A DNA stretch of 62,939 nt, filler included, from 7 parts of 7 records of this genome joined end to end with filler, not necessarily neighbours in it, one strand, 5' to 3'; positions 38,523 to 52,268 are shown, counted from the whole stretch's first letter. Notes: generated by a model not told the origin, from the letters alone. Numbers and translations are program-made.

Positions 38523-38523
38523 A

Positions 38524-39447
38524 TTTCGGATTGACGTATTCGATGTTTCCGTCGGTGTTGGTTATCAATACCGATGACGGGCTTTGTTCGACCGCGACGG
38601 ACAATTTGCGGACGTCCTGTTCGGCCTGAACCCGTTCGGTGATATCGAGCGAAACCGTCACCACCAGATCGACCGAACCGCTGCCGCCGCGCAACGGCGC
38701 CTTGGTTGTCAGAAGGCGGCGCTGGGCGCCGCTGCGATCCTGCACATGGTCTTCCTGCCCGAAGATGAGTTGGCCGCTGACAATGACGGTGCGGTCGAGT
38801 TCGACCTGCCGGGCCCCGTAATCGGCGCCGAGAATTTCGATCATCGGCCGGCCGATCGCCTTGATCGGTTCGACCTCGAAATAGGCCCGGTGGTGGTTGT
38901 TGAGGAAGGCGCAGTTGCCGTCGCGGTCGCTTGCCCGAACCAGGGCGGGAACCGTGTTGATGACGTTGCGCAGCCTTTCCTCGCTTTTGCGTTCGTCATC
39001 GGCATGTTTGTCGATGGCGGCTTGCAGTTCGTGTTCCAGCGATACGGCGCGGTCCTGAATGATCTGTTTCTGCCGCCACATGGTCAGCAGGTTGATCGCC
39101 CGGGTCCTGAATTCGTGATGGTCGATCGGGCTTCGCAGGAAATCCGTGGCGCCGGCTTCGAGCGCGCTGTAGCGGTAGTCGCGGTCTTCGTAGGCGGTAA
39201 TGACGATGATCGGGACATCGAAGCATTTCAGTTTTCGTCGGCATTCGGCGACGAATTCGGCGCCGTTCATCTCGGGCATCTGAAAATCGGTGATGATCAG
39301 ATCGACGTCCTGGTCCAGCATCCAGTCGAAAGCCGCCCTCGGATTATCGAATGGATGAACCTCCGCCCCGGCTTCCAGCGATCGTGCGAGCTGCGCAAGG
39401 ATGTTGCGATTCGTGACACGATCATCGACGACGACGATGACTGACAT
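38524..39447 (-). CDS. REC-PAS-PAS response regulator (RpfG-like receiver; output domain not in window)
   Basis: VVVDD, ITDFQMP, DFLRSP; PAS ending DITERV; second PAS begins AVEQSPSSVLITN..IEYVNP. Confidence 0.85.
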
Positions 39448-39959
39448 GATCTTTGTTTTGTTCCCCCCAGCTAACTTGAACGTTCACAGTTTCTTATTGT
39501 CGGCGGAAAATAAACCGAAAATTGGGTTCAAGTTCGAACGCACCCGCAACTTCCACCCCCCAATTGGCGAAGTGGGGCCGAAAAAAAAAGATCAGGGCCC
39601 CGGACGCAGCAGATTCCAGATGGGCTGTTTTACATGCGAAATCGTGGATACAGAAGGTGGATTTTTTCCCGACGGCAAAAAATACGATCATGGAGTGCCG
39701 TTTTTCGGCCCGGTTGAGGGCGATGACAATTGTCGGATTTTGACCGCGCGCACGGTTTGGTTAGTCACAATTGTGAAAAATTCAACCGCATTGACGAACC
39801 ATCTCGCCAGTCGGCTCGGAAAAAGTTACTCTTTTGACGGTTGTGCCAGACGATTGAGGAGGGGCAATCGGAGCGACCGGAACCGGAGACTGCGCCCGGA
39901 CTTTGTCTGTCGACAAGAAAAACGATACGGCAGGCCGGCGTAATAAATTGGAGGAGAAT

Positions 39960-40982
39960 ATGTCTAAACTAATGGTATCCAAGGTGCACGACACCCACGG
40001 TTTTGGCCTTCGAGAAGAAGAGCCGACCAAGGCGCTTCGACCGAATAGAATCAAAGCCCTTTACGACGCCGTTGCCGACGACGTGCCGTCGAAGGAGGGG
40101 GTGCCGCCATTCGATCTTGAATGGTGGTTGCGAACGACGCCGTTCCGCGAAGTCGAGGTTGAATTCGACACCTCGGCGAAGGTGGTGTGGCAGTTCATGA
40201 AATTCAGGCGGCGTCCGAGCGTCACGCTCGAACTTCTGCGTGAAATCAAGCAGATCCTGGAAATGATCGGGAAAGCCTTCGAGCAACCCGGGGCTCAGGA
40301 AAACCCGCCGGTGCATTATGTGGTGCTGGCGTCGAAACTGCCGGGCGTTTTCAACATGGGCGGCGACCTTCCGTTGTTCGTCGATCTGATTCGCAGCGGC
40401 GACGCCGAAGGGTTGCGGCATTATGCCCACGCCTGCGTCGACGTGCAGTATCTGCGCTGGAGCAAGCAAAGGCTTCCGATCCAGACCGTGTCGCTGGTAC
40501 AGGGCGATGCCCTTGGCGGCGGTTTCGAGGCGGCCTTGGCCGACGACATCATCATCGCCGAGGAAAGCGCCAAATTCGCCCTGCCGGAAATCCTGTTCAA
40601 CCTGTTTCCGGGGATGGGGGCTTACAGTTTCCTGGCCCGCCGCCTGAACGCGGCGACGACGGAACGCCTGATGCTCAGCGGCAAGATCTATTCGGCCGGC
40701 GAGCTTTATGAACTGGGCGTCGTCGACCGGGTCGTCCCCGACGGATCGGGTGTCGAAGGCTTCTACGGATTTGTCGACGACAACCAACGGTCCTACGCCG
40801 CACGAAGCGCGGTTCTGGATGCGCGGCGAACCGTCAATCCGCTGGCGCCGGCCGAGTTGACCGAGATCACCGACCGCTGGGTTGACGCGGCGTTGACTCT
40901 GTCGCCTCTGGACTTGCGCAAGATGGAACGCCTCGCAAAAGCCCAGGACCGGCGCCGGACCCGGGCACGCGAGGTGGCCTAG
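39960..40982 (+). CDS. rpfF: DSF synthase RpfF-like crotonase
   Basis: VLAS..PGVFNMGGDL, VQGDALGGGFEAAL, LPEILFNLFPGMGAYS (both catalytic Glu), W..AAL.L...DLRKMERL. GGAG RBS precedes ATG 39960. Confidence 0.85.
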   Translation: MSKLMVSKVHDTHGFGLREEEPTKALRPNRIKALYDAVADDVPSKEGVPPFDLEWWLRTTPFREVEVEFDTSAKVVWQFMKFRRRPSVTLELLREIKQILEMIGKAFEQPGAQENPPVHYVVLASKLPGVFNMGGDLPLFVDLIRSGDAEGLRHYAHACVDVQYLRWSKQRLPIQTVSLVQGDALGGGFEAALADDIIIAEESAKFALPEILFNLFPGMGAYSFLARRLNAATTERLMLSGKIYSAGELYELGVVDRVVPDGSGVEGFYGFVDDNQRSYAARSAVLDARRTVNPLAPAELTEITDRWVDAALTLSPLDLRKMERLAKAQDRRRTRAREVA

Positions 40983-41116
40983 GGACGTTTATTCGGAAGC
41001 GTGACGCGACGTCCAATCGCGGCCTGCGGAATCGGTTCCGTGGGCCGGCGGGATTCCTTGTGGTGCCCGGGCCGATCGGTCCGGACGCCGGAGTCTGTCA
41101 AATGATCGGAAGGTTG

Positions 41117-43690
41117 TCAGATCAGTTCCGTTTTCCCGGCCCGTTCCGCCATGTAGTTGCCGATGGCACGGCGGAAACGCTTCAGTTCGTCGGCGACCTG
41201 AAGCATGTGGGCATCGCCGCGGTTGGCCAGTTGTTCGGGCGTGATGCCGCTCATCTTGTGGCACTGCTGATGAAGCATCTTGGCGCCGACATTGGCCGAA
41301 CTGCTGCGAAGGGCGTGGCCGAGTTCGCGGAACTTGAGCGCATCGCCGGCGGTTTTCGCTTCATACATCGCCTCGATCAACCGTTCGGCGTCGACAAGGT
41401 ATTCGCGAATGAGTTCGACTAGGAACCCCTCGTCCGGTCCCAGGTTCTCGACATCCTGGAGCACACCCCAATCGATAACCGAGGTGGGTTCGCCCTTGAA
41501 TCGGGGATGGGTGTAGATCTCGGTCACCGAAGACGGCCCGGAAGCAGCCTCCTCCAACTTTCGGGCCGGATCTTCGGCCTCAACCAGGCCTTCGATTTCA
41601 ACCAGGAGTTTCCGCGCCGCGACCGGTTTCGTCAGATAGATATCCATGCCCGCTTCGAGGCACGCGTGCTTCGTTTCATCGGTGGCGTCCGCACTCAGGC
41701 CGATGATCGGCATGTGGGGCTCGCCCATGCTGGCGATACGATAAAGCTTGACCGCCTCGATGCCGCTCATGCCCGGCATGTTGACGTCCATGATGGCAAG
41801 ATCGAATTTCTGCGATTCCAACAGGTCGAGGGCTTCATCGCCGCTTGTTGCCAGCGTTGCAACATGGCCGGCCCGCGTCAGGATTTTCTCGGTGACCTTG
41901 CGGTTGACCAGATTGTCTTCGGCGACCAGGACCGATAGCGGCCGATGTGTTTCCGATACCGGCAGATCGGGTTCCTCGGTGCCTTCCCCCGACCGGGTCG
42001 CCAGGAATGCCGCGGCGAGGTGAACGACGTTTTCCAGATCGCCGGAATCGAACGGGATGTCGAGCGAGGCAAGGAATGTACTGTCGTTGACGGGGCCCTG
42101 CATCGGGTTTTGGACCTGGATGAAGGCGAAGCTGCTGGCAGGACGGAAGGTTTCCAGACCGCGTGCCACTTCGCTCGCCCGCCAGCCGGCGTCGCGGGAA
42201 TCGATCAGGGTAATCGGGAAGGAGCTGCCGCGAATGGCGCCGCCGACGGCGTTCTGGGCTTCAAGCGGCGAGCGCACGCCGATCACGTCCAGATGCATGT
42301 GAACCAGTCCGTGTCGGATCGAATCGACCATTGACGAATCGCGCGATACCACCAGCACAGCGGCATCGGGCATGCTTTGGGCGGTGACGGTCGTCGATTG
42401 TTGGGCGAACGGGACCTCGGTCCAGAAGGTGCTGCCGTGGCCCGGATTGCTGATGACGCCGATCTTCCCGCCGAGAAGTTCTATGAGATGCTTTGAAATC
42501 GCCAAGCCGAGGCCGACGCCGTCGTTGCGCCGGCTGATGCCGTCGTCGGCCTGGGTGAAGCTGTCGAAAATCCGTTCGATGTGGGACGGAGCGATGCCGA
42601 TTCCGGAATCCGTTACCTCGAACCGGAGCACGGCGCCCCCGGTGTCGGGCGATTGCGACACCAGACCGACGTGCAGGTTGACGTGTCCCGTTTCGGTGAA
42701 TTTGATCGCGTTGCCGATCAGGTTGGCCAAGACCTGTTGCAGGTGCGGCCAGTCGCCGCGAAGGCGATAGGGCGCCTTCGGCGAAACGTCGATACCCAGG
42801 CTCAGGCCTTTGCGGTCGGCCTGGACCCGCAGGATCGAAACCAGATCGATGATCGATTTGTGCAGGTCGAAATCGTCGGCCGCGACGGAAATCTTGTTGG
42901 CCTCGATCCTCGAGAAATCGAGGATGCCTTCGATCAACGACAGCAGGGTGCGTCCCGACGTTTTGATGGTGCCCAGCATCTCGCGTTGGTCGCGGTCGAT
43001 CTGGGTGCTGCGAAGAAGGTCGCTCATGCCGATGATGGCGTTTAACGGCGTGCGCAGCTCGTGGCTCATGCGGGCAAGGAAGCGGTTTTTCGCCTGGTTG
43101 GCTTCCTCGGCCTGCGCTTTCGCTTCGGTCAGTTTTTTGATCAGGGTGCCGGAATAGGCGGGGATCGCAACCAAAGCGGCCAGAAGGCCGATGCCCAGCC
43201 ACAGATTGCCGGACCACCACTCGGTCGTTGCCAAAACGACCGAGAAACTGATGAACGAGACGACCACCGAAGCGGCAAGGAATTTCAGGCCGTAGCGGAA
43301 GCCCATTCCCAGCGTCACCCAAAGATAGATCGGATAGAGCGGCGCCGTGAATTCGCTGCCGAGCTTGAGAACCGAAAGCATGGCCGTGAAATCGGTGACC
43401 ATGGCGAAAAACCGCCGCGTCACCGATTGGGCCGGGTAGATTGCGATGAGGGCCAGATAAAGAAATGACAAAGCCAGGTAAATGATCGCGGTAACCAGGA
43501 GACCCGATTCCTGGCTCGGTTCAAGCGGCGTATCGAAGGCATGAAGCAGAGCGAAATAGGCAAGCAATAAGGCGACGATGACCACTCGGACCAGCGCCTG
43601 TTCGTGCTCACTGTCGGGGCGGTTACGGAATCTTTCCTTCAGGCCGGATAATCCCGCGCCGACCGCTCCGGTCCTTTCGATCTCTGACAT
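41117..43690 (-). CDS. rpfC: RpfC-like hybrid sensor kinase (TM-HisKA-HATPase-REC-HPt)
   Basis: [13 protein letters not shown]-terminus, [38 protein letters not shown], HPt [12 protein letters not shown]. Convergent with rpfF. Confidence 0.85.
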
Positions 43691-43933
43691 GCGATTCCTC
43701 TGTGCGCGATTACCTTTCCAGACCGGTTCGAAAGGCGCGCGCCTATTTCAACCCATCGAATATCCGTCGATCGGGTTTTTCTCGACGAATGATGAAGGGT
43801 TTGGCGCGAATATGCAATTCTGACGATTAATTATCGTTTCACAGCGTGAATTGCGTTGTGGGCCGGTTTTCTCCAGAAATGACACCTTTTGACCCCCATC
43901 GGCGGTATAGTCGTTTTCGGGGAGTAACACCTG

Positions 43934-44335
43934 ATGGCTCGATTTATCGGCAGACTTGCCATTTTTTACTGTATCGCCACGCTTTTGTCGGTGCCGGCCG
44001 TCACAGCCGAGGCCGCTTCCGAGCAATTGCGGGGAACGCAGTTTCTTTACGTTCTCAACGGCAATACCCTGACCGGAACCGATGAAAAAGGTGTTTTTTT
44101 CTTTGCCTATTTCCTCGCCGGCGGCACGGCCACCTATGAGGACGCGACCGGTTTTCGCGACGTCGGCAAATGGACCGTTCGGAACGACATCTTCCTTTGC
44201 ATCCGATGGCAGAATAGGGGCGACAACGCCGAACACTGCGGGACGGGCAGCCTGTCGGGCAAAACGCTGACCCTGCGGGGCGGATCGCTGCCGACCCCGC
44301 TTCGGGTGATCGGCACCATTGCCGGCGGACGTTAG
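43934..44335 (+). CDS. Small secreted hypothetical protein (beta-rich, two mature Cys)
   Basis: GGGGAG RBS, signal peptide, GNTLTG..GKWTV..LCIRW pattern. Confidence 0.6.
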   Translation: MARFIGRLAIFYCIATLLSVPAVTAEAASEQLRGTQFLYVLNGNTLTGTDEKGVFFFAYFLAGGTATYEDATGFRDVGKWTVRNDIFLCIRWQNRGDNAEHCGTGSLSGKTLTLRGGSLPTPLRVIGTIAGGR

Positions 44336-44365
44336 AACGCCTCTTCAGACCGAGTTCAGCAATCG

Positions 44366-45697
44366 TCAATCCAACGGCAAACCGCTGGGGACCCGATCGG
44401 GCGCGCCAAGTCGGCCTTCGAGACTGTGCCGATCGGTCAGGGATTCAAGAAAAGCCAGCAGATCGGCGATTTCCCGATCCGACAGGTCGACCGGATCGAG
44501 TTCGTTGGCGGCCAGGATCGCCGCCTGTTCGGTGCGATTGTCGAAGACCAGAAAGTCCCCCTTCGCGACGATGGCGTCGGCCGGAAGAATCAACTGGCCC
44601 GGGTCATAGGCGCGGAAGGCGGCCTCGGGGTTCAGGTGATGGCGGACGACAGCTTCCAGGCTGCGATAGGCGCCGGTGTGGCCATAGGGCGCCGTCGCCG
44701 CAACATTGCGCAGACTGGGGGTGCGGAATTTGTAGGCGTCTTCGCGCCGGTCGCTTTCGTTCAGGCGACCGCGGTCGCGGGCGACCGGATCGAACAAACG
44801 TGTCCGGCCGGGGCCGAGTTGGGGCATGGCGATGGCGTGGAATTCGTGGTCGGTCTGGAACTTACCGGCATGGCAGACGGCGCAGCCGGCCTTGCCGTAG
44901 AACAGATCGAGGCCGCGTTTCTGTTGCCCGTTCAGCGCCGCTGTGTCGCCGCGCAGATAGGCATCGAAGGGGCTGCGATCAGCCCGCCATTCCGAATTGA
45001 CGAAGGCGCCGATGGCGTTGCCGATATGGACGATGGTTATATCGGTCGGCTTTTCGACTTCCGGAAAGGCGTCCCGAAAAAGTGGCAGATAGCCGTCGAC
45101 GGCATGGATGCGTTCGACCAGAATGTCCCAGGCATAATCCTGGCGCCGCCGGACGGCGCCGGCGACTTGGTTTTCGCCGATCTGCCCGGTCATCTCCACC
45201 TCCGACAGCACCGGGAACAGGGCCTGGGCGGCGGCGACCGAGTCGAGCCCCGCCGGCAAGAATTCCTCGGCCGGGGTGTTGAAACCGGTCGGGTCTTCGG
45301 GATCTTCGAAAACCCGGCCGTCGTGAAACAGGCGCGTGAATTCCCGTGCTCCCAGATTGAACAGTACCGGCGAATGACGCGGCACCCGGCGGTTCGGCGT
45401 GATGCCGCCGTCGCCGAACGTCCGGGTCGGTCCCAGGCCGGTTCCGCCTTCGCCGATGCCGAGCGACAGTCCGTCGGACCCCCGATGATCGTGATGATGG
45501 CAGGTGGCGCAGGCGATGTTTTGATTGCCGCTGAGGATGCGGTCGTAGAACAGCAGCCGCCCGAGGGCCGCCTGGGCCGGAACGACCGGACGATAGTCGG
45601 CGTCGGCAACCGGCGGGGGCAGGTCGATGGATGGGGCCGATGCGGCCGGTGCCAACGGCGCGAAAAAAGCGACCAATAGAAGGATGATTCGCATCAT
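44366..45697 (-). CDS. Diheme cytochrome c peroxidase/MauG superfamily protein (non-canonical)
   Basis: Signal peptide; LGRLLFYDRILS, CATCH, CAVCH, FRTPSLRNVAATAPYGH, LLAFLESLT. Confidence 0.9.
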   Translation of the reverse strand: MMRIILLLVAFFAPLAPAASAPSIDLPPPVADADYRPVVPAQAALGRLLFYDRILSGNQNIACATCHHHDHRGSDGLSLGIGEGGTGLGPTRTFGDGGITPNRRVPRHSPVLFNLGAREFTRLFHDGRVFEDPEDPTGFNTPAEEFLPAGLDSVAAAQALFPVLSEVEMTGQIGENQVAGAVRRRQDYAWDILVERIHAVDGYLPLFRDAFPEVEKPTDITIVHIGNAIGAFVNSEWRADRSPFDAYLRGDTAALNGQQKRGLDLFYGKAGCAVCHAGKFQTDHEFHAIAMPQLGPGRTRLFDPVARDRGRLNESDRREDAYKFRTPSLRNVAATAPYGHTGAYRSLEAVVRHHLNPEAAFRAYDPGQLILPADAIVAKGDFLVFDNRTEQAAILAANELDPVDLSDREIADLLAFLESLTDRHSLEGRLGAPDRVPSGLPLD

Positions 45698-45786
45698 CGG
45701 ATCGCATCCGCCGCGTCAAATCCCATATGTGGTGCAGCCGGGCAACTATACTCCGGCCGGAGCTTAGCCGTATGGGGAGCCGAACC

Positions 45787-46275
45787 ATGCCCAAACCCGG
45801 ATTGGCCGCGATGATCCTGATGATCGGGTTGTGCGTTACGGTGCCGGCCGCGGCCGACATCCAGAAAGCCCGCGACCTGATGGACGCCAGCCGGTTCGAA
45901 GAAGCGATGGTCGAACTGCTGCCGGCGGCGCAAAGCGGCAACGCCGACGCCGAGGAACTGATCGGCGTCATGTACGCCATGGGCCTGGGGGTTCCGCGCG
46001 ACGACGAGCGGGCCTTCGAATGGTATCTGCGGTCCGCCCTGCGCGGCCATCCCGGCGCCCAGTCCGGCGTCGGCTGGTATTATGAGATCGGCCGCGGCAT
46101 GCCGGCACCCGACCTGGTGCGGGGATACATGTGGTACGTGCTGTCGGCGATCGGCGGCGATCCCGACGCCGCCATCTCGCAGGAAGAGATCGTCAAGAAG
46201 ATGACGCCGGAACAGATCCGGCGGGCCCACATCCTGATCGACGACTACAAGGGCCATCTCTATCCCTTCGACTGA
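45787..46275 (+). CDS. Secreted Sel1-repeat protein
   Basis: GGGGAG RBS, signal peptide, IGVMYAMGLGV..AFEWY..AQSGVGWYYEIGRG. Confidence 0.85.
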   Translation: MPKPGLAAMILMIGLCVTVPAAADIQKARDLMDASRFEEAMVELLPAAQSGNADAEELIGVMYAMGLGVPRDDERAFEWYLRSALRGHPGAQSGVGWYYEIGRGMPAPDLVRGYMWYVLSAIGGDPDAAISQEEIVKKMTPEQIRRAHILIDDYKGHLYPFD

Positions 46276-46314
46276 AACGAAAAAGGGCCGCCAATGACGG
46301 CGGCCCTTCGTTTC
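46274..46314. terminator. Bidirectional intrinsic terminator
   Basis: AAGGGCCGCC-aatgac-GGCGGCCCTT between the convergent sel1 and dctP genes; T run on the minus strand. Confidence 0.85.
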
Positions 46315-46337
46315 GATCAATTTAAACCGGCCGCGAG

Positions 46338-47405
46338 CTACTGGATTTCTTTCGTCAACTCGGCGTCCATGAACGCCTCGGCGTCGGCAGCGGCTTTGAC
46401 CAGGGCGTCGTAAACTTCCGGGCCGTTTCTGACGTTTTTCTTGAACCAGTCGTATACCGGAGCCGCTGCCTTCTTGAATTCAGCCTTTTCGGCCGGAGTC
46501 GGCACATACAGCGTGCCGCCACCCTTGACGAAGTCGGTATAGGCTTTGATCGACTTGCGCTTCGGCGAAGCAAACGTCGCCTGTTGCAGTTCGGCAAAGC
46601 CGTCGACGATCACCTTTTGCAGGTCCTTCGACATGCCCGTGAAGCGGTCGTTGTTCATCATCCACAGGGCGCCCATGTAGGCATGACCGTCGAGGGTGAC
46701 GTATTTCAGGCCGGCATCCGGGAATTTCATTCCCATGATGTCGGTGATGCCGTTCTTGGATCCTTCGACGACACCGGTCTGGAACGAGGTGAACAGTTCC
46801 GGCCACGGAATCGGGGTCGGGCTGGCGCCCAGGGCCTTGACCAGTTCCTGCGGCAGGTCGGCGACAACGGTGCGGATTTTCAAACCGGCCATGTCGGCGG
46901 GCGTTTTCACGACCCGCTTGGTGTTGGCAAAGTTGCGCCAACCGCCGGTGTTGCCGATGGTCATCAGACGGATCATGCCGCCGGAGTCATCCAGGACCAT
47001 CTTGCGGATCATCCGGGTGAAGTCGCCGCTCAATGCGATTTCGGCCACGCGGTCGTCGCGCAACAGGTACGGCAGGTCGAGAACCTGGATGTACGGGAAG
47101 GCCCCGGCGGCGCCGCCGGAAGTCGTGATGTAGATGTCGATGGTGCCGTCGGCGATACCCTGCAGGCATTCCGCGCCTTTCCCGCAAAGCTGGGTGCCGA
47201 TGAAAAGTTCGACCGAGATTTCACCGTTCGAGCGGGATTCGACGAAATCCTTGAAGACGATCAGTCCGTCGTAATCTTCGTCGTTTTCGTTCGAATTGGC
47301 GGTTGCCCGAAGATTGTATTTGGCGGCATCGGCGGAGACAGCCCCGAAGGCAATCGAACCGATGACGGCTAGTGCGACGGCTGTCGATTTACGAAAGGAT
47401 AACAT
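46338..47405 (-). CDS. dctP: TRAP transporter substrate-binding protein DctP
   Basis: Signal peptide; GWRNFAN, GLKIRT (conserved Arg), LGASPTPIPWPELFTSFQTGVVEG. Confidence 0.92.
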   Translation of the reverse strand: MLSFRKSTAVALAVIGSIAFGAVSADAAKYNLRATANSNENDEDYDGLIVFKDFVESRSNGEISVELFIGTQLCGKGAECLQGIADGTIDIYITTSGGAAGAFPYIQVLDLPYLLRDDRVAEIALSGDFTRMIRKMVLDDSGGMIRLMTIGNTGGWRNFANTKRVVKTPADMAGLKIRTVVADLPQELVKALGASPTPIPWPELFTSFQTGVVEGSKNGITDIMGMKFPDAGLKYVTLDGHAYMGALWMMNNDRFTGMSKDLQKVIVDGFAELQQATFASPKRKSIKAYTDFVKGGGTLYVPTPAEKAEFKKAAAPVYDWFKKNVRNGPEVYDALVKAAADAEAFMDAELTKEIQ

Positions 47406-47493
47406 TGCGTAACTCCTCCTTGTTTTCGTGGTTTGTGCGTATTCAGTAACTTCGTTGTGCTTGGTCGGTCGCCTTTCTGGCGACGGTTTATGG

Positions 47494-48783
47494 CTAATTG
47501 GCGAGTCCCATCAATCGCGGCATGAACATCGAAATCGCCGGTATGTAGGTGATCAGGAAGATGACCACGATTTCGACCGCCAGGAACGGCAGGATCGCCT
47601 TCGATATGGATTCCACCTTTTCCCCCGATACAGAGGACGCGACGAATAGAACGAGACCCATCGGCGGCGTTGCCAGGCCGACCGTCAGATTGACGCTCAT
47701 GATGATCGCAAAGTGGATCGGATCGACGCCGATGCTGATGAAGATCGGTCCCAGGATTGGGCCGAGGATGATGATCGCCGGCCCGGCGTCGAGGAACATA
47801 CCGACGAGAAACAATAGCAGGTTGATCAGCAGCAAAAGCAGCAGCGGATCCGCGGTCAAGGCGAGGATCCAGATGGCCAGCTCTTCGGCGACGTGCGACA
47901 GGCTGACCACGGTCTTGAAGGCCATGGCGGCACCGACCAGCAACAGGACCACCGACGAGACCAAGGCCGATTTCATGAAGATACGCGGCAGGTCGCTGAA
48001 TTTCAGCGAGCGCAGGACGAACAGGCCGATGACCATGGCATAGCCGGCGGCGACGGCCGAGGCTTCGGTCGGCGTGAACAGGCCGCCCAGGATGCCACCG
48101 AGGATGATTACGGGCGTCATCAGCGGCAGGATCGCCTTGGTGAAAGCCTGCCAGCGCTGCAACCAGGTGGCCTTGTCGCCAGCGACCGGGAAATCCTTGG
48201 CCCGGGCCATGGCGGCGACCACCGCCATCAGGCCGAAACCGACCAGGATGCCGGGAACGATGCCACCGGCGAACAGCGCGGCAACCGACACTTCCATGAC
48301 ATAGGCATAGATGATCATGATTCCGGACGGCGGGATGATCGGCCCGATGACCGAACTGGCGGCGGTCACGGCAGTGGCGAATTTCCGCGTATAGCCGTTC
48401 TTCACCATCGCGGGAATCAACATTGAACCGAGGGCCGAGGTATCGGCCACGGCCGAACCCGACAGGCCGGCGAACAGCATCGAGGAAAGGATATTCACAT
48501 GGGCCAGGCCACCGCGTAAGTGCCCGATCAGGGCCTGCGAGAACCGCACAAGGCGGATCGTGATGCCGCCCTGGTTCATCAGTTCGCCGGCCAACATGAA
48601 GAAGGGAATGGCCATCAACGGAAAGCTGTCGACGCCGTTATAGACGTTGCGGTACATCAGCGCCGCGTCGCGTTCCATGCCCTCGACGAACAGCATGATC
48701 CCGGGCGCGCCCAGCATCGCGAAAAAGACCGGCGTGCCGAGCATCAGCAAAACCAGGAACAGCGGCAGGAAGATCATCAACAT
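47494..48783 (-). CDS. dctM: TRAP transporter large permease DctM
   Basis: AIPFFMLAG, SGSAVAD, IIPPS, TPTEA, TPPMG. Confidence 0.95.
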   Translation of the reverse strand: MLMIFLPLFLVLLMLGTPVFFAMLGAPGIMLFVEGMERDAALMYRNVYNGVDSFPLMAIPFFMLAGELMNQGGITIRLVRFSQALIGHLRGGLAHVNILSSMLFAGLSGSAVADTSALGSMLIPAMVKNGYTRKFATAVTAASSVIGPIIPPSGIMIIYAYVMEVSVAALFAGGIVPGILVGFGLMAVVAAMARAKDFPVAGDKATWLQRWQAFTKAILPLMTPVIILGGILGGLFTPTEASAVAAGYAMVIGLFVLRSLKFSDLPRIFMKSALVSSVVLLLVGAAMAFKTVVSLSHVAEELAIWILALTADPLLLLLLINLLLFLVGMFLDAGPAIIILGPILGPIFISIGVDPIHFAIIMSVNLTVGLATPPMGLVLFVASSVSGEKVESISKAILPFLAVEIVVIFLITYIPAISMFMPRLMGLAN

Positions 48784-48787
48784 GCGA

Positions 48788-49339
48788 TCATCCCTCCGAC
48801 ATGAAACTGGGGGCTGCCGGTTTCGGGAAATCGTCCTTGTTCCCGAACATCCGACCCAGGGTGCGGAGGATCATTTCGATGTTGACGCTCAACATCAGGC
48901 CGAAACAGACCGTCATCGCCAGGTAGATCCAGGCCAGCGGAATTTTCAGGCTGGAGGACCTGAAGATGAACCCGGAATTGAAATGCTTGACCGAATGCTG
49001 CAGCAGGACGAACAGAATGATCGTCGCCAGGGCGAAGATTGCCAGGGTCAGCGCCCGGCGTGCATTGGCCGGCATGTTGTCGACCACCATGTTGATGCTG
49101 ACAAAGGCGCCCCAGCGGTAACCCGACGGTGCCATGAAGGCCATCATCCAGATCATCAGGGCGCGTGCCGCTTCTTCCGGCCATGGCAGGGCGTTGTTGA
49201 GGGCGTAGCGGAAGAAAACCTGAATGAGGATGATGAGGACCATCAGGATCAACGCCAGCCAGGCGATCTGACGGCCGACCGCCAGGATTGCCGAGTTCAC
49301 CGTGCCCAAAAGGGCGGTCGCTTTCGCCATCACCCGCAT
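48788..49339 (-). CDS. dctQ: TRAP transporter small permease DctQ
   Basis: QVFFRY..WPEEAAR, four TMs. ATG 49339 has an AGGGA RBS and avoids overlap with the GH31 gene. Confidence 0.9.
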   Translation of the reverse strand: MRVMAKATALLGTVNSAILAVGRQIAWLALILMVLIILIQVFFRYALNNALPWPEEAARALMIWMMAFMAPSGYRWGAFVSINMVVDNMPANARRALTLAIFALATIILFVLLQHSVKHFNSGFIFRSSSLKIPLAWIYLAMTVCFGLMLSVNIEMILRTLGRMFGNKDDFPKPAAPSFMSEG

Positions 49340-49358
49340 ATGTGACTTCCCTTTGTTG

Positions 49359-51530
49359 TCATTGTTGTGCCTCCCGGGGGTCGAGCCCGTCGCCGGCGCG
49401 GCGGCGTTTGACGGCTTTCCCAACACCGTCGTCGCCGTTCCTTAGCAGTGGCGGCGTTTTGCCGTCGCCGTAGCGCCAGATTTCCTCGATCACGGGTTTT
49501 TCGCCCAACTCGCCGGTGTGATTGACCGTAGGCCCGAGGGCAATTGCCGCGCCGTCGCGCACGAAAACGGGGATTTCTTCCAACGGAACGGTTTCGGCGA
49601 AGACCCGCCCGCCTTCAATCGGCTCGCCGGTAAAGAGATTCCACCAGCGGCCCGGAGGCAGATAGTAGGAAACCTTCCCATCCGGGCGCAGCACCGGCGC
49701 GACCAGCAGATCGGGGCCGAACATGAACTGGTTTTCGAAGGCCCAGGCGGCCCGGTCGTCCGGGAAGGCCAGGGGCATCGCCCGCATGACCGGTAGCCCG
49801 GTTTTCTCGGCCGTAGCGATGATCGCGTCGATATAGGGCAGCAGCCGGTAACGCAGGGTCATGTAGCGTCGGGCGACGGCCTCGGTCTCGGCGCCGAAGG
49901 CGTAGGGTTCGCGTTCGCCGATGCCGTGAAAGCGCATGTGGCTGGTGAAGACACAGGCCTGGGTCCAGCGGACGAAAAGCTCGGCCGACGGCTGGGTGCC
50001 GTAATAGCCGCCGATGTCGCTGGTGTGGCAGGGCACGCCGGACAGGCCCCAGCTTTGACCGCCGCGCAGGCTGCCGGCCAAGCCTTCCCAGTCGGACTGC
50101 GGATCGCCGCCCCACTGGATGGGATAACGCTGGCTGCCGGCCCAGCCGCTGCGGCTGTAGACCAGGGCGTTGCCCATTCCGAAGGCGGCCTCGGTGGCCT
50201 CGAAGACGCAGCGGTTGTAGAGCAGGGCGTAGGCGTTGTGCAGTTCCGCGCCGGTCGAGCCGTCGGCGGCCATCATGTCGTCGGTGACCTGTTCGCCGAA
50301 GTCCGGCTTGATGACGTCGACGCCGAGATCGAAGAGTTTCTTGTGTTCGTCGCGCCAATATTCGTAGGCGTCCTGGTGGGTGAAATCGATCAGACCGCTT
50401 TCCGGCAGCGGCGTCAGGACCTTGCCGAAAGGCTCGGTATCGAAGGCATAGCGCGCCGCGGCGCCGGTCTTGTCCTTGAGCAGCCAGCCCTTGTCTTCCA
50501 GTTCCGAAAACAGCGCGCCCTGCACTGAGACCAGGGGATATTCCCAGACGCAAAGTTTCATATCGAGGTCGTGCACGGCGTCGCAGAAGGCTTTCGGATC
50601 GTCGAAACGCTTCGGGTCGAAGGCGAAAGCGAAGCGGGTGTCGGTATCCTGCCAGGCCCGCCCGTCGAGGCAGATGACGTCGGTCGGCAGGCCCTTGTCG
50701 CGCAGGGTGCGGGCTACCGAAAGCAGTTCGTCCGGGGTGTGGTAGTAGGCCCGCGACACCCAGATGCCCAAGCTCCACAGCGGGATTTCCGGCATGCGGC
50801 CGGTCAGTCCGGTATAGCGTTCGATGATGTCGGCGCCGTCTTGTCCGGCGATCAGGAAGAGGTCGATGGCCGGTTGTTCGATACTGGCGACATACGAGCG
50901 CTGTGACCACGGCGCGAAACCGACGCCGTGATCGCTCGGCGCGCCCGACAATACGAACAGGCCCCAGCCTTCCGGGCTCCAGGCGAAGGGGCAGTTCTTG
51001 TAGCTGACCTCGGCATTGACGCCCAAGGCATCGGTGTTGTCCGAGCGGATCAGCTGGCCGCGGTGATCGAGCCCGCCCCATTTTTCGCCGAGCCCGTAGA
51101 CCGGTTCGCCCGAATGCAGGGCAAGGGCGACCGACAGGCGATCTCCCAGCCGCGAAAACGGGGGTATGCGCCGGGCCCGCACGAAGTGGCCGTCGTCAGC
51201 CGATGTCAGAACTTCGGTGCCGTCGCGTTTCAAGGACAGGGACAGGTCGTCCATGTCGACGCGCAGTGTTGCCGTACCGGCCGATAGGGTCGCCTTGCCG
51301 TCGGCGATGATCGCCGTGTCGGTGGCCGTCGGTGCATTCGCCACCAAAATGCCGTAGGGATCTTCAGGCTCGGCGCCGAGGGTCAGTCGGAAAACGCCAT
51401 CGGTCCATGGCTGCAGGATCAGCGGCCCGGCTTCGGTTTCAACGACGACGGAATTGCCGATAACTTGCGCCGGTGCGATTGCCGTCAACGCCTCGGCCCG
51501 GTTCCAGTTGATGGTGGTCAGCGGATTCAT
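49359..51530 (-). CDS. Glycoside hydrolase family 31 (YicI-like scaffold), cytoplasmic
   Basis: YGLGE, YKNCPF, KPDFGE nucleophile, WGGD acid/base region, SDIGGY, RFHG, FGPDLLVAPV. No signal peptide. Confidence 0.9.
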   Translation of the reverse strand: MNPLTTINWNRAEALTAIAPAQVIGNSVVVETEAGPLILQPWTDGVFRLTLGAEPEDPYGILVANAPTATDTAIIADGKATLSAGTATLRVDMDDLSLSLKRDGTEVLTSADDGHFVRARRIPPFSRLGDRLSVALALHSGEPVYGLGEKWGGLDHRGQLIRSDNTDALGVNAEVSYKNCPFAWSPEGWGLFVLSGAPSDHGVGFAPWSQRSYVASIEQPAIDLFLIAGQDGADIIERYTGLTGRMPEIPLWSLGIWVSRAYYHTPDELLSVARTLRDKGLPTDVICLDGRAWQDTDTRFAFAFDPKRFDDPKAFCDAVHDLDMKLCVWEYPLVSVQGALFSELEDKGWLLKDKTGAAARYAFDTEPFGKVLTPLPESGLIDFTHQDAYEYWRDEHKKLFDLGVDVIKPDFGEQVTDDMMAADGSTGAELHNAYALLYNRCVFEATEAAFGMGNALVYSRSGWAGSQRYPIQWGGDPQSDWEGLAGSLRGGQSWGLSGVPCHTSDIGGYYGTQPSAELFVRWTQACVFTSHMRFHGIGEREPYAFGAETEAVARRYMTLRYRLLPYIDAIIATAEKTGLPVMRAMPLAFPDDRAAWAFENQFMFGPDLLVAPVLRPDGKVSYYLPPGRWWNLFTGEPIEGGRVFAETVPLEEIPVFVRDGAAIALGPTVNHTGELGEKPVIEEIWRYGDGKTPPLLRNGDDGVGKAVKRRRAGDGLDPREAQQ

Positions 51531-51550
51531 GGCTTACTGCCTTCGATCCT

Positions 51551-52168
51551 TCACGTCAGCTCGACGACGGGAATGTTCAGCGCCTTAGCGGCGGCCCGCA
51601 ATGCCGGCCGGTGTTCGCCGTAGGCGAAACTGTAATGGTGTTCGAGCCCCTCGGTCATGACGCCGGCGAGAATTTCCGAGGCGGCACGGTCGAACCTGAC
51701 GACGCCGCAGGTTCCGGAAAAGCTTTGCGGCCGTTTGATCATCTCGCCGCCGGCCAGGATCAGACGGACCCGGTTGCGCGACTGGCTCAAGCGGGCGACG
51801 GTGATGCGCCCCGGTTTCAGCGGAAATTCGTGCAGCAGCGGTTTTTTGCGGTTTGAATGGATGCCGACGCGAACGCCGGTATCCGGATCGGCCATGGATT
51901 CGGGCGCCAACCCGCAATGCCACAGCACGGCCGTATCGTCAGCGACATCGACATCGACCAGGTCGGCCATGAACACCGGTTCGGCGGTCAGGCTTTGCAG
52001 GATCTGGCTGGAAAGATTGCCGAAGACATCGGCTTCGCAGGCGCACGGAATGCCGCTGCCGCTGACCATCGCCATGGCGCCACAGGCGGCACAGCCGTAA
52101 TCGGTGAAAAATTCCGGCCAGCAGCGCACCGCCAGGCCCGTATAGCCGCCTTCTTCGGCAAGATCCGA
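51551..52168 (-). CDS. L-fucose/L-arabinose isomerase-like protein, 5'-truncated (SftI/SqvD-like)
   Basis: Open to the contig end (SDLAEEGGYTGLAV). RCWPEFF, ACEAD, WHCG, HSNRK, LKPG..T..R, EHH. Confidence 0.8.
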   Translation of the reverse strand, partial: SDLAEEGGYTGLAVRCWPEFFTDYGCAACGAMAMVSGSGIPCACEADVFGNLSSQILQSLTAEPVFMADLVDVDVADDTAVLWHCGLAPESMADPDTGVRVGIHSNRKKPLLHEFPLKPGRITVARLSQSRNRVRLILAGGEMIKRPQSFSGTCGVVRFDRAASEILAGVMTEGLEHHYSFAYGEHRPALRAAAKALNIPVVELT

Positions 52169-52268
52169 NNNNNNNNNNNNNNNNNNNNNNNNNNNNNNNN
52201 NNNNNNNNNNNNTTAATTAATTAANNNNNNNNNNNNNNNNNNNNNNNNNNNNNNNNNNNNNNNNNNNN
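52169..52268. other. Artificial contig spacer
   Basis: 44 N + TTAATTAATTAA + 44 N. Confidence 0.98.

Follow-up and report, generated by a model that had tools for sequence, protein, structure and literature searches.

An operon with a FucI-fold isomerase, a candidate SqgH-type GH31 glycosidase and a TRAP transporter is a likely front end of sulfoquinovose-glycoside catabolism in an alphaproteobacterium

Results

Gene content of the locus

In the DNA analysed here (the window, positions 1-62939), 100-base spacers of the form N/ttaattaattaa/N link seven contigs, and our subject is an operon at the right edge of the fifth of these (38523-52168, 13.6 kb, G+C content 0.61), which encodes a truncated FucI-fold isomerase, a glycosidase of family GH31 and a transporter of the TRAP (tripartite ATP-independent periplasmic) type. 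Because the G+C contents of the contigs (0.51, 0.28, 0.35, 0.36, 0.61, 0.45 and 0.49 in window order) are very different, the other six were not taken to come from the same organism, and the record looks like a mixed or loosely binned contig set. Gene adjacency was not interpreted across spacers; the DNA beyond 52268 belongs to another contig and is uninformative about the operon, and the junction itself (52169..52268, no strand), with its runs of N around ttaattaattaa, is artificial and not biology.

All genes of the operon are co-oriented on the minus strand, where they read, 5' to 3', as the isomerase, GH31, dctQ, dctM and dctP, followed by a hairpin. The isomerase gene (51551..52168, minus strand) retains its C-terminal 205 codons, matches PF02952 (Fucose_iso_C) at 1.3e-9, above the gathering score, and is broken where the contig ends, at 52168, rather than by a mutation. 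The GH31 gene (49359..51530, minus strand; 723 amino acids (aa)) carries three GH31 Pfam domains, with PF01055 at 5e-83. The small TRAP permease gene dctQ (48788..49339, minus strand; 183 aa; PF04290 at 1e-24) lies in an open reading frame (ORF) that extends to 49426, and its start is probably the ATG at 49339, as judged from the translation; the orthologue in the related locus L002 has 184 aa. It is followed by dctM, for the large permease (47494..48783, minus strand; 429 aa; PF06808 at 4e-117; TIGR00786 at 421 bits, above cut-off), and by dctP, for the solute-binding protein (46338..47405, minus strand; 355 aa; PF03480 at 1e-54; NCBIfam TRAP_S1 above cut-off).

The terminator-like hairpin (46282..46309, minus strand), a consensus match only, begins 29 nucleotides past the dctP stop codon and has a 12-bp stem with eight G-C pairs, a 4-nucleotide loop and a T-rich tail; it also faces a convergent Sel1-repeat gene (45727-46275, plus strand), and a region-wide scan for such sites gave no enrichment (4, against 5.5 in shuffled sequence). 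The ORFs, their order and the hairpin are as described in the first-pass annotation of this DNA, a reading of the bare sequence that had reported a co-oriented isomerase-GH31-dctQMP string ending in a terminator. Its further statement that the upstream genes are cut off also holds, with the contig ending inside the isomerase at 52168 and the spacer following at 52169-52268.

The GH31 glycosidase

Nucleophile D410 and acid/base D476 of the GH31 protein align with D405/D472 of YihQ and D416/D482 of YicI, both comparison sequences being taken from the E. coli K-12 record. The protein scores 445 bits on the YicI model NF007940 and 235 bits on the YihQ model NF007746 (cut-off 553), below cut-off in both cases, and its matches to PDB sequences include 5F7C (4e-108), YicI (7e-96) and YihQ (1e-43). 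At the columns of YihQ Q288, R301, W304 and Y508 it has R291, a gap, F300 and Y509, so that the Tyr is the sole match, and the loop that holds R301 and W304 in YihQ is four residues shorter here and contains no R-x-x-W. A YihQ-type (GH31_13) identity is ruled out by the missing RW of the Q/E-RWY motif together with the model score, and no GH31 protein in the three relative genomes tested was above the YihQ model cut-off. The window GH31 has no signal peptide, and its glycoside substrate must therefore enter the cell intact.

A better counterpart is AmSqgH of Alteromonas macleodii ATCC 27126, a member of the SqgH clade described from marine Gammaproteobacteria (Ma et al., Nat Commun 2025; PMC12780224). 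This GH31 enzyme is close to subfamily 3, lacks the Q/E-RWY motif, and cleaves the para-nitrophenyl (PNP) glycoside of sulfoquinovose (SQ), PNPSQ, as well as SQ-glycerol (SQGro), while leaving PNP-glucoside (PNP-Glc) and PNP-xyloside (PNP-Xyl) intact; the E. coli GH31_3 enzyme is inactive on PNPSQ. The predicted SQGro-binding residues of AmSqgH are R302, T377, K412 and F513 (PMC12780224).

When 401 genomes of the phylum (G001 and 400 sampled Pseudomonadota) were searched with the window GH31, one further carrier emerged, G022, whose GH31 (locus L111) is flanked by a TauE exporter and an SSF symporter, and carries R302, T377, K412 and F513 at exactly the numbers published for AmSqgH. Genes for a GntR regulator, an aldo-keto reductase, a dioxygenase of the TauD family, an exporter of the YeiH type and a sulfite-oxidase-like protein also lie at this locus, which thus has the layout of the SQ dioxygenase pathway (sulfo-SDO). 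The window GH31 is 50% identical to the L111 protein over 673 residues, with R299, T373, K408 and Y509 at the four aligned positions. The Arg, Thr and Lys and both catalytic Asp residues are invariant in 57 of 57 extracted members of the clade, and the column of AmSqgH F513 is Phe in 56 of them and Tyr solely in the window protein; the corresponding columns of E. coli YicI read W, gap, K and F. In a quick maximum-likelihood tree the L111 GH31 is nested within the clade (SH-aLRT, an approximate likelihood-ratio branch test, 99), and YicI and YihQ fall outside it. We propose that the window GH31 is a candidate SqgH-type sulfoquinovosidase, which would release SQ from SQGro. The idea in the first-pass annotation of a possible sulfoquinovosidase is retained in this form, with SqgH-type residues kept and the YihQ type set aside. 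Tyr 509 is also the residue found at the aligned position of YihQ, Y508.

The isomerase

The only NCBIfam match of the isomerase fragment is NF048012 (SftI), with 181 bits against a cut-off of 700 in an alignment that spans 246-440 of the 443 profile positions (44%); its full-length orthologues in L001, L002, L006, L067 and L099 reach 252-292 bits, likewise below this equivalog cut-off. A PDB sequence search with the fragment returned nothing usable, with one chance match at E 0.4. The fragment contains RCWPEFF, WHCG and HSNRK, instances of the motifs named in the first-pass annotation, and an alignment of 96 homologous fragments shows the cores RCWPExF, CEAD, WHCG and HxNR without variation in all 96. 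The isomerase of L029, which is identical to that of L002, shares 87% identity with the window fragment. SqvD is assigned to PF02952 in a review (PMC9594981), and this assignment, with SftI as the sole NCBIfam match, bears out the first-pass placement of the gene in the SftI/SqvD family. We propose that the protein is a SqvD/SftI-like isomerase that would convert SQ to sulfofructose. In the window it adjoins the GH31 gene, and the position beside an SQ glycosidase, like the Pfam family, is shared with SqvD/SftI (PMC7491151, PMC9594981); unlike SftI, the branch to which it belongs is distant (181 bits for the fragment and 252-292 for full-length proteins, against 700) and occurs in Gram-negative lineages.

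The TRAP transporter

DctP has a signal-peptide-like N-terminus, and the solved proteins nearest to it are 4P47 (1e-34) and IseP (8T9T, 2.5e-33), which binds isethionate. The Arg of its KIRT motif, singled out as anion-binding in the first-pass annotation, is R178, opposite which the alignment places Arg173 of 4P47 and the 'LKVRT' segment of IseP, at the position of the salt-bridge residue Arg177 (PMC11668362). R157, R178 and N218 correspond to the anion triad R152, R173 and N213 of 4P47, a triad kept in 9 of 9 GH31-linked DctP proteins, and the Arg pair aligns with the Arg residues that bind the sulfonate of isethionate in IseP (PMC11668362). Judged by its residues, the intact Arg/Arg/Asn triad points to an anionic ligand, and the site does not specify which anion; DctP-type binding proteins mostly bind carboxylates (PMC11668362). 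We propose SQGro or SQ as the ligand of DctP. With dctPQM complete and this site intact, a DctP-type TRAP system is the likely importer, in keeping with the uptake route suggested earlier.

In two relatives, a TonB-dependent outer-membrane receptor gene lies directly downstream of the GH31 gene (L099:12670-15060 and L067:12991-15456). The receptor in L099 sits between the GH31 and TRAP genes, and TRAP genes were not found in the L067 locus. A TonB receptor beside GH31 suggests active outer-membrane uptake of an SQ glycoside.

Gene neighbourhoods of relatives

We collected 22 genome loci with the window GH31 and 80 metagenome loci with the isomerase fragment, the latter being the best 80 of 155 relatives, and mapped all 102 with Pfam, NCBIfam and tblastn. 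Among the genome loci, 18 of 22 have an isomerase, 14 TRAP genes and five an ATP-binding cassette (ABC) binding protein; a YihV-like kinase is present in 12, a LacD-type aldolase in 13, one or both in 13 and a transaldolase in four, and none of the 22 holds a best match to YihQ or YihS. Kinase or aldolase genes occur in 68 of the best 80 metagenome loci, and a kinase and/or an aldolase lies upstream in all 44 that have at least 2.2 kb of DNA on that side; a SuyB-like gene is found in 30 of these 80, and a transaldolase match in none. Where at least 3 kb of downstream DNA is available (48 loci), 29 have a member of the GH31 clade, 12 have TRAP genes without GH31 and 7 have neither. A YihS-type isomerase was discarded as a candidate, there being no match in any of the 102 mapped loci.

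The independent signal in these surveys is the recurrent sulfonate-specific gene company around the module. Locus L013 holds a set like that of the E. coli yih cluster, with a YihU-like reductase, a YihV-like kinase, a DeoR regulator and an aldolase, together with a FucI-fold isomerase and this GH31. L099 and L067 share a split SuyA/SuyB-like pair, a D-2-hydroxyacid dehydrogenase and an L-sulfolactate-dehydrogenase-like gene (about 200 bits, its best match, below cut-off), a gene set that matches the published SlcC/ComC-SuyAB mineralisation scheme (PMC12421959). L099 alone adds a glycerol-3-phosphate dehydrogenase and GlpK, both above the NCBIfam cut-off, which fits SQGro as the imported form. 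The first-pass annotation had expected sulfonate genes in homologous clusters, and YihV-like, YihU-like, SuyAB-like and sulfolactate-dehydrogenase-like genes were indeed found there. The comparative data link the set to genes of sulfoglycolysis and sulfolactate mineralisation in three phyla.

The kinases of relatives are 40-48% identical to E. coli YihV, whose sulfonate triad is K27-N109-R138 (PMC8006165); K27 and R138 are kept in 6 of 6 and N109 in 3 of 6. In the relatives' LacD-type aldolase, the equivalents of the Schiff-base Lys and of R253 are kept.

The nearest locus, L001, is 76% identical to the window in GH31, 91% in DctM and 87% in DctP, and is syntenic through DctP, the Sel1-repeat gene and a cytochrome c peroxidase gene; its contig likewise breaks at the isomerase. 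L002, from the same metagenome-assembled genome (MAG) as L001, continues further, in the order NagB-like, Gfo/Idh/MocA, EamA, GH116, LacD-type aldolase, isomerase, GH31 and DctQMP, and gene order and orientation are shared with the window by both loci at 73-92% amino-acid identity. The LacD-type aldolase lies directly upstream of the isomerase in the closest relatives L002 and L029, which predicts an aldolase upstream of the window isomerase too. By analogy with these loci, our best guess is that the missing upstream gene would encode a LacD-type aldolase and that the route would be a hybrid sulfo-EMP (sulfo-Embden-Meyerhof-Parnas) pathway.

In G002, the nearest genome and the MAG of these two loci, the contig regions L115:9315-12668 and L116:1-2729 hold a YihV-like kinase gene (48% identical to E. 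coli YihV) and then a gene for a 789-aa protein that resembles transketolase only weakly, at 106 bits where the cut-off is 488. These near-duplicate syntenic contigs within one MAG suggest two co-binned strains. The transketolase-like neighbour leaves a small door open for another route.

Discussion

From the gene families, the conserved catalytic and ligand residues and the neighbourhoods of relatives described above, we infer substrates, activities and a lower pathway, and we consider it likely that the region is the front end of an SQ-glycoside catabolic operon from a Rhodospirillales-like alphaproteobacterium, in which a hybrid sulfo-EMP pathway is fed by SQGro. Periplasmic DctP would bind the anionic glycoside SQGro, and possibly free SQ too, through its Arg/Arg/Asn site, and DctQM would import the bound glycoside. 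The cytoplasmic SqgH-type GH31 would then hydrolyse SQGro to SQ and glycerol, and the FucI-fold isomerase, presumably metal-dependent, would turn SQ into sulfofructose. If the closest relatives are a guide, the missing upstream genes most likely include one for a LacD-type class I aldolase, which would, together with a YihV-like sulfofructose kinase, yield dihydroxyacetone phosphate (DHAP) and sulfolactaldehyde. SQ had been put forward as the substrate in the first-pass annotation; with the SqgH residues, the SftI-only match and the sulfonate-linked neighbours, SQ or its glycoside is the most likely one.

Several points weigh against this interpretation. Genes for a kinase, an aldolase, a sulfolactaldehyde enzyme and a sulfonate exporter are all missing from the window contig, which ends inside the isomerase, and the YihV-like kinases of G002 lie outside the GH31 locus, beside the distant transketolase-like gene. 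NCBI models place the window GH31 nearest to alpha-xylosidase; the link to AmSqgH rests on the gene context of L111 and on four matching residue numbers; the tree came from a quick search with two outgroups (YicI and YihQ) and no other GH31_3 members; and assays of the clade's enzymes and binding proteins are confined to Alteromonas. At its distance below the SftI cut-off, the isomerase is a remote relative and not an equivalog. The relatives' aldolase is only 26% identical to YihT, and NCBI models name it 'tagatose 1,6-diphosphate aldolase', with the subfamily cut-off passed. The galactarate-dehydratase-like pair of L099 and L067, at only 131-143 bits on the NCBIfam galactarate dehydratase model, we tentatively take to be SuyAB from background on the family and from its split architecture. 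Gene calls came from a simple ORF heuristic and tblastn maps, and the co-occurrence of GH31 and isomerase is partly built in, the loci having been collected by similarity to one or the other.

The same three functions might instead feed a transaldolase- or transketolase-type sulfoglycolysis (sulfo-TAL or sulfo-TK) with its genes in the missing upstream DNA, which is the route that the first-pass annotation had favoured. Loci of this kind exist: in L008, L015, L016 and L018 (4 of the 22 genome loci), the GH31 clade, an isomerase and a TRAP or ABC system stand beside a 220-aa transaldolase of the TAL/FSA type, joined in L008 by a GabD-like aldehyde dehydrogenase, and the YihV-like kinase of G002 adjoins the 789-aa transketolase-like gene. 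These four loci, however, belong to distant Desulfobacterales and Anaerolineae, where the GH31 is only 48-52% identical. No transaldolase match occurs in the best 80 metagenome loci, where a kinase and/or LacD-type aldolase accompanies 44 of 44 with enough upstream DNA. The nearest relatives usually have a YihV-like kinase, and they carry a LacD-type aldolase, which in L002 and L029 is the gene directly upstream of the isomerase. We regard a sulfo-TAL or sulfo-TK route at this locus as unlikely.

An operon for some other alpha-glycoside, which we consider quite improbable, could act on an alpha-xyloside or alpha-glucoside, on a carboxylated compound such as a glucuronide or glucosylglycerate, or on a glycoside of sulfofucose, handled through sulfotagatose and a tagatose-type aldolase. 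The best GH31 scores, to the YicI alpha-xylosidase model (445 bits) and to 5F7C, an 'alpha-glucosidase', speak for it, as do the tagatose-aldolase cut-off passed by the relatives' enzyme and the carboxylate preference of most DctP-type proteins (PMC11668362); an EMP-like sulfotagatose route for sulfofucose has been discussed, and was not found, in PMC12421959. Against it, the window GH31 keeps all four predicted SQGro residues of AmSqgH, with YicI differing at two, and in the assays noted above AmSqgH was inactive on PNP-Xyl and PNP-Glc and the E. coli GH31_3 enzyme on PNPSQ (PMC12780224). The neighbours are also sulfonate-linked, with YihV-like (K27/R138), YihU-like, SuyAB-like and sulfolactate-dehydrogenase-like genes, and TauE and TauD in L111. 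The sulfofucose variant, prompted by the 'tagatose' name of the aldolase, was kept as a minor rival only, because the published sulfofucose pathway is of the Entner-Doudoroff (ED) type and its authors found no isomerase activity (PMC12421959). It is very improbable indeed that these genes are a non-functional relic or a product of faulty assembly. The window does concatenate unrelated contigs, part of the isomerase is missing, and L001, the nearest MAG contig, stops at the same gene; yet all four complete ORFs are unbroken and keep their catalytic and binding residues, their order and orientation recur in L001 and L002, and the break is a contig end.

The preferred reading, a hybrid sulfo-EMP operon fed by SQGro, has published precedents for its parts. 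Hybrid sulfo-EMP1/2 clusters that mix a PF02952 isomerase, a PF00294 kinase and a PF01791 aldolase are known from Proteobacteria (PMC10665668), and hybrid clusters have been published for Vibrio as well (PMC13372026). The system proposed here likewise has the PF02952 isomerase, a PF00294 kinase of the YihV type and a PF01791 class I aldolase; it differs from the published hybrids in that its glycosidase is of the SqgH type rather than the YihQ type or GH188, its importer is TRAP, its aldolase is LacD-like (the 26% identity to YihT given above), and kinase and aldolase are seen in relatives only. The logic of E. coli yihOPQRSTUV, with import, glycosidase, isomerase, kinase and aldolase, is the same, down to the YihV similarity of the relatives' kinases and, in L013, the YihU-like and DeoR (CsqR-like) genes, whereas the isomerase is not of the YihS type, the glycosidase not GH31_13, and the importer TRAP instead of the YihO/YihP major facilitator superfamily type.

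With SqgH of A. macleodii, the window GH31 shares proximity to GH31_3, the absence of a Q/E-RWY motif and of a signal peptide, the binding residues and catalytic Asp pair, and 50% identity to the sulfo-SDO-linked protein of L111. Unlike SqgH, it lies on an alphaproteobacterial contig beside a FucI-fold isomerase and a TRAP importer, has Tyr in place of F513, and has relatives that sit in sulfo-EMP- or sulfo-TAL-type clusters rather than with an SQ dioxygenase. TRAP systems in SQ clusters have also been published (PMC10507154, PMC12780224). SqoKLM of Marinomonas (PMC10507154) and RD1_2315, a DctP of R. denitrificans in an SQ monooxygenase (sulfo-SMO)/GH188 cluster (PMC12780224), compared here by description, are likewise DctP-family systems in SQ gene clusters, and IseP has the same Arg/Arg/Asn site, which there binds a sulfonate (PMC11668362), although its identity to the window DctP is low (E 2.5e-33, one among many similar matches). 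Unlike in those systems, the window TRAP genes lie directly beside a cytoplasmic glycosidase, which implies glycoside import.

The claim of a new route, made in the first-pass annotation, is therefore not upheld: hybrid sulfo-EMP clusters (PMC10665668), SqgH and SQ-linked TRAP systems were already published, and all parts have published counterparts, so that the locus is a new example in a combination not yet described and not a new pathway. In the literature consulted, including the text supplements of PMC12780224 (its figures and full sequence lists were not inspected), we found no SqgH-type enzymes outside Gammaproteobacteria and no link of SqgH-type enzymes to sulfo-EMP- or sulfo-TAL-type clusters.

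A wider and more tentative reading is that the SqgH-type glycosidase, the distant SqvD-like isomerase and TRAP form a portable front-end module for SQGro that is combined with at least three lower pathways across Alphaproteobacteria, Desulfobacterales and Chloroflexota. These pathways, in a reading we hold to be possible though doubtful, would be sulfo-EMP with a LacD-type aldolase, a transaldolase route and, with the glycosidase alone, SQ dioxygenase. If it were true, SqgH-type enzymes would be a major gateway for SQ missed by YihQ-based surveys, and not a speciality of marine Gammaproteobacteria; TRAP would be dedicated to bringing in a sulfonated glycoside intact; and the lower pathway in Rhodospirillales, where a kinase lies beside a transketolase-like gene and the locus includes GH116, Gfo/Idh/MocA and EamA, might differ from any described.

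Surveys of SQ degraders mostly look for glycosidases of the YihQ type or of GH188, and for isomerases of the YihS type or close to SftI. Automatic annotation would call the present genes an alpha-xylosidase-like GH31, a fucose-isomerase-like protein and a 'dicarboxylate' TRAP system, so that such surveys would miss them. If assays agree with our reading, marker sets for SQ cycling should add the SqgH-type clade and this branch of isomerases, and DctP would be well suited to work on the recognition of a sulfonated glycoside by a TRAP binding protein.

Further observations

The remainder of the operon contig (38523-46320) begins with a response-regulator/PAS fragment cut by the spacer, followed by an enoyl-CoA hydratase-like gene (39903-40982), a hybrid histidine kinase gene with receiver and Hpt domains (41117-43690), a di-haem cytochrome c peroxidase/MauG-like gene (44366-45697) and the Sel1-repeat gene (45727-46275). 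Synteny of DctP, Sel1 and the peroxidase is kept in L001, L002, L056 and L059.

Among the relatives, a GH116 glycosidase gene adjoins 5 of the 22 GH31 loci, all alphaproteobacterial (L002:5231-7564 and the start of L006, L007, L009 and L022). LarA-like genes, of the nickel-pincer hydroxyacid racemase family, occur in the GH31-clade loci L012:8255-9556, L013:2803-4233, L016:13708-15009 and L018 (about 20869); the one scored, in L013, reaches 184 bits on the NCBIfam model LarAH14/15/16, below cut-off, and the genes are candidates for a racemase of sulfolactate or dihydroxypropanesulfonate (DHPS). In the Desulfobacterales loci of sulfo-TAL-like content, a Peptidase_M24-fold gene is kept between the transaldolase and GH31 (L008:7609-8718 and L015:1027-2121). 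The loci with at least 3 kb downstream in which the isomerase is followed by DctQMP, and GH31 is lacking, include L040, L042, L047-L049, L054, L055, L061, L074, L080 and L084, most of them with a kinase upstream, and in six of them (L042, L047, L048, L049, L054 and L080) a Gfo/Idh/MocA match lies downstream of DctP; some of these genes may encode GH188-type NAD-dependent sulfoquinovosidases in place of GH31.

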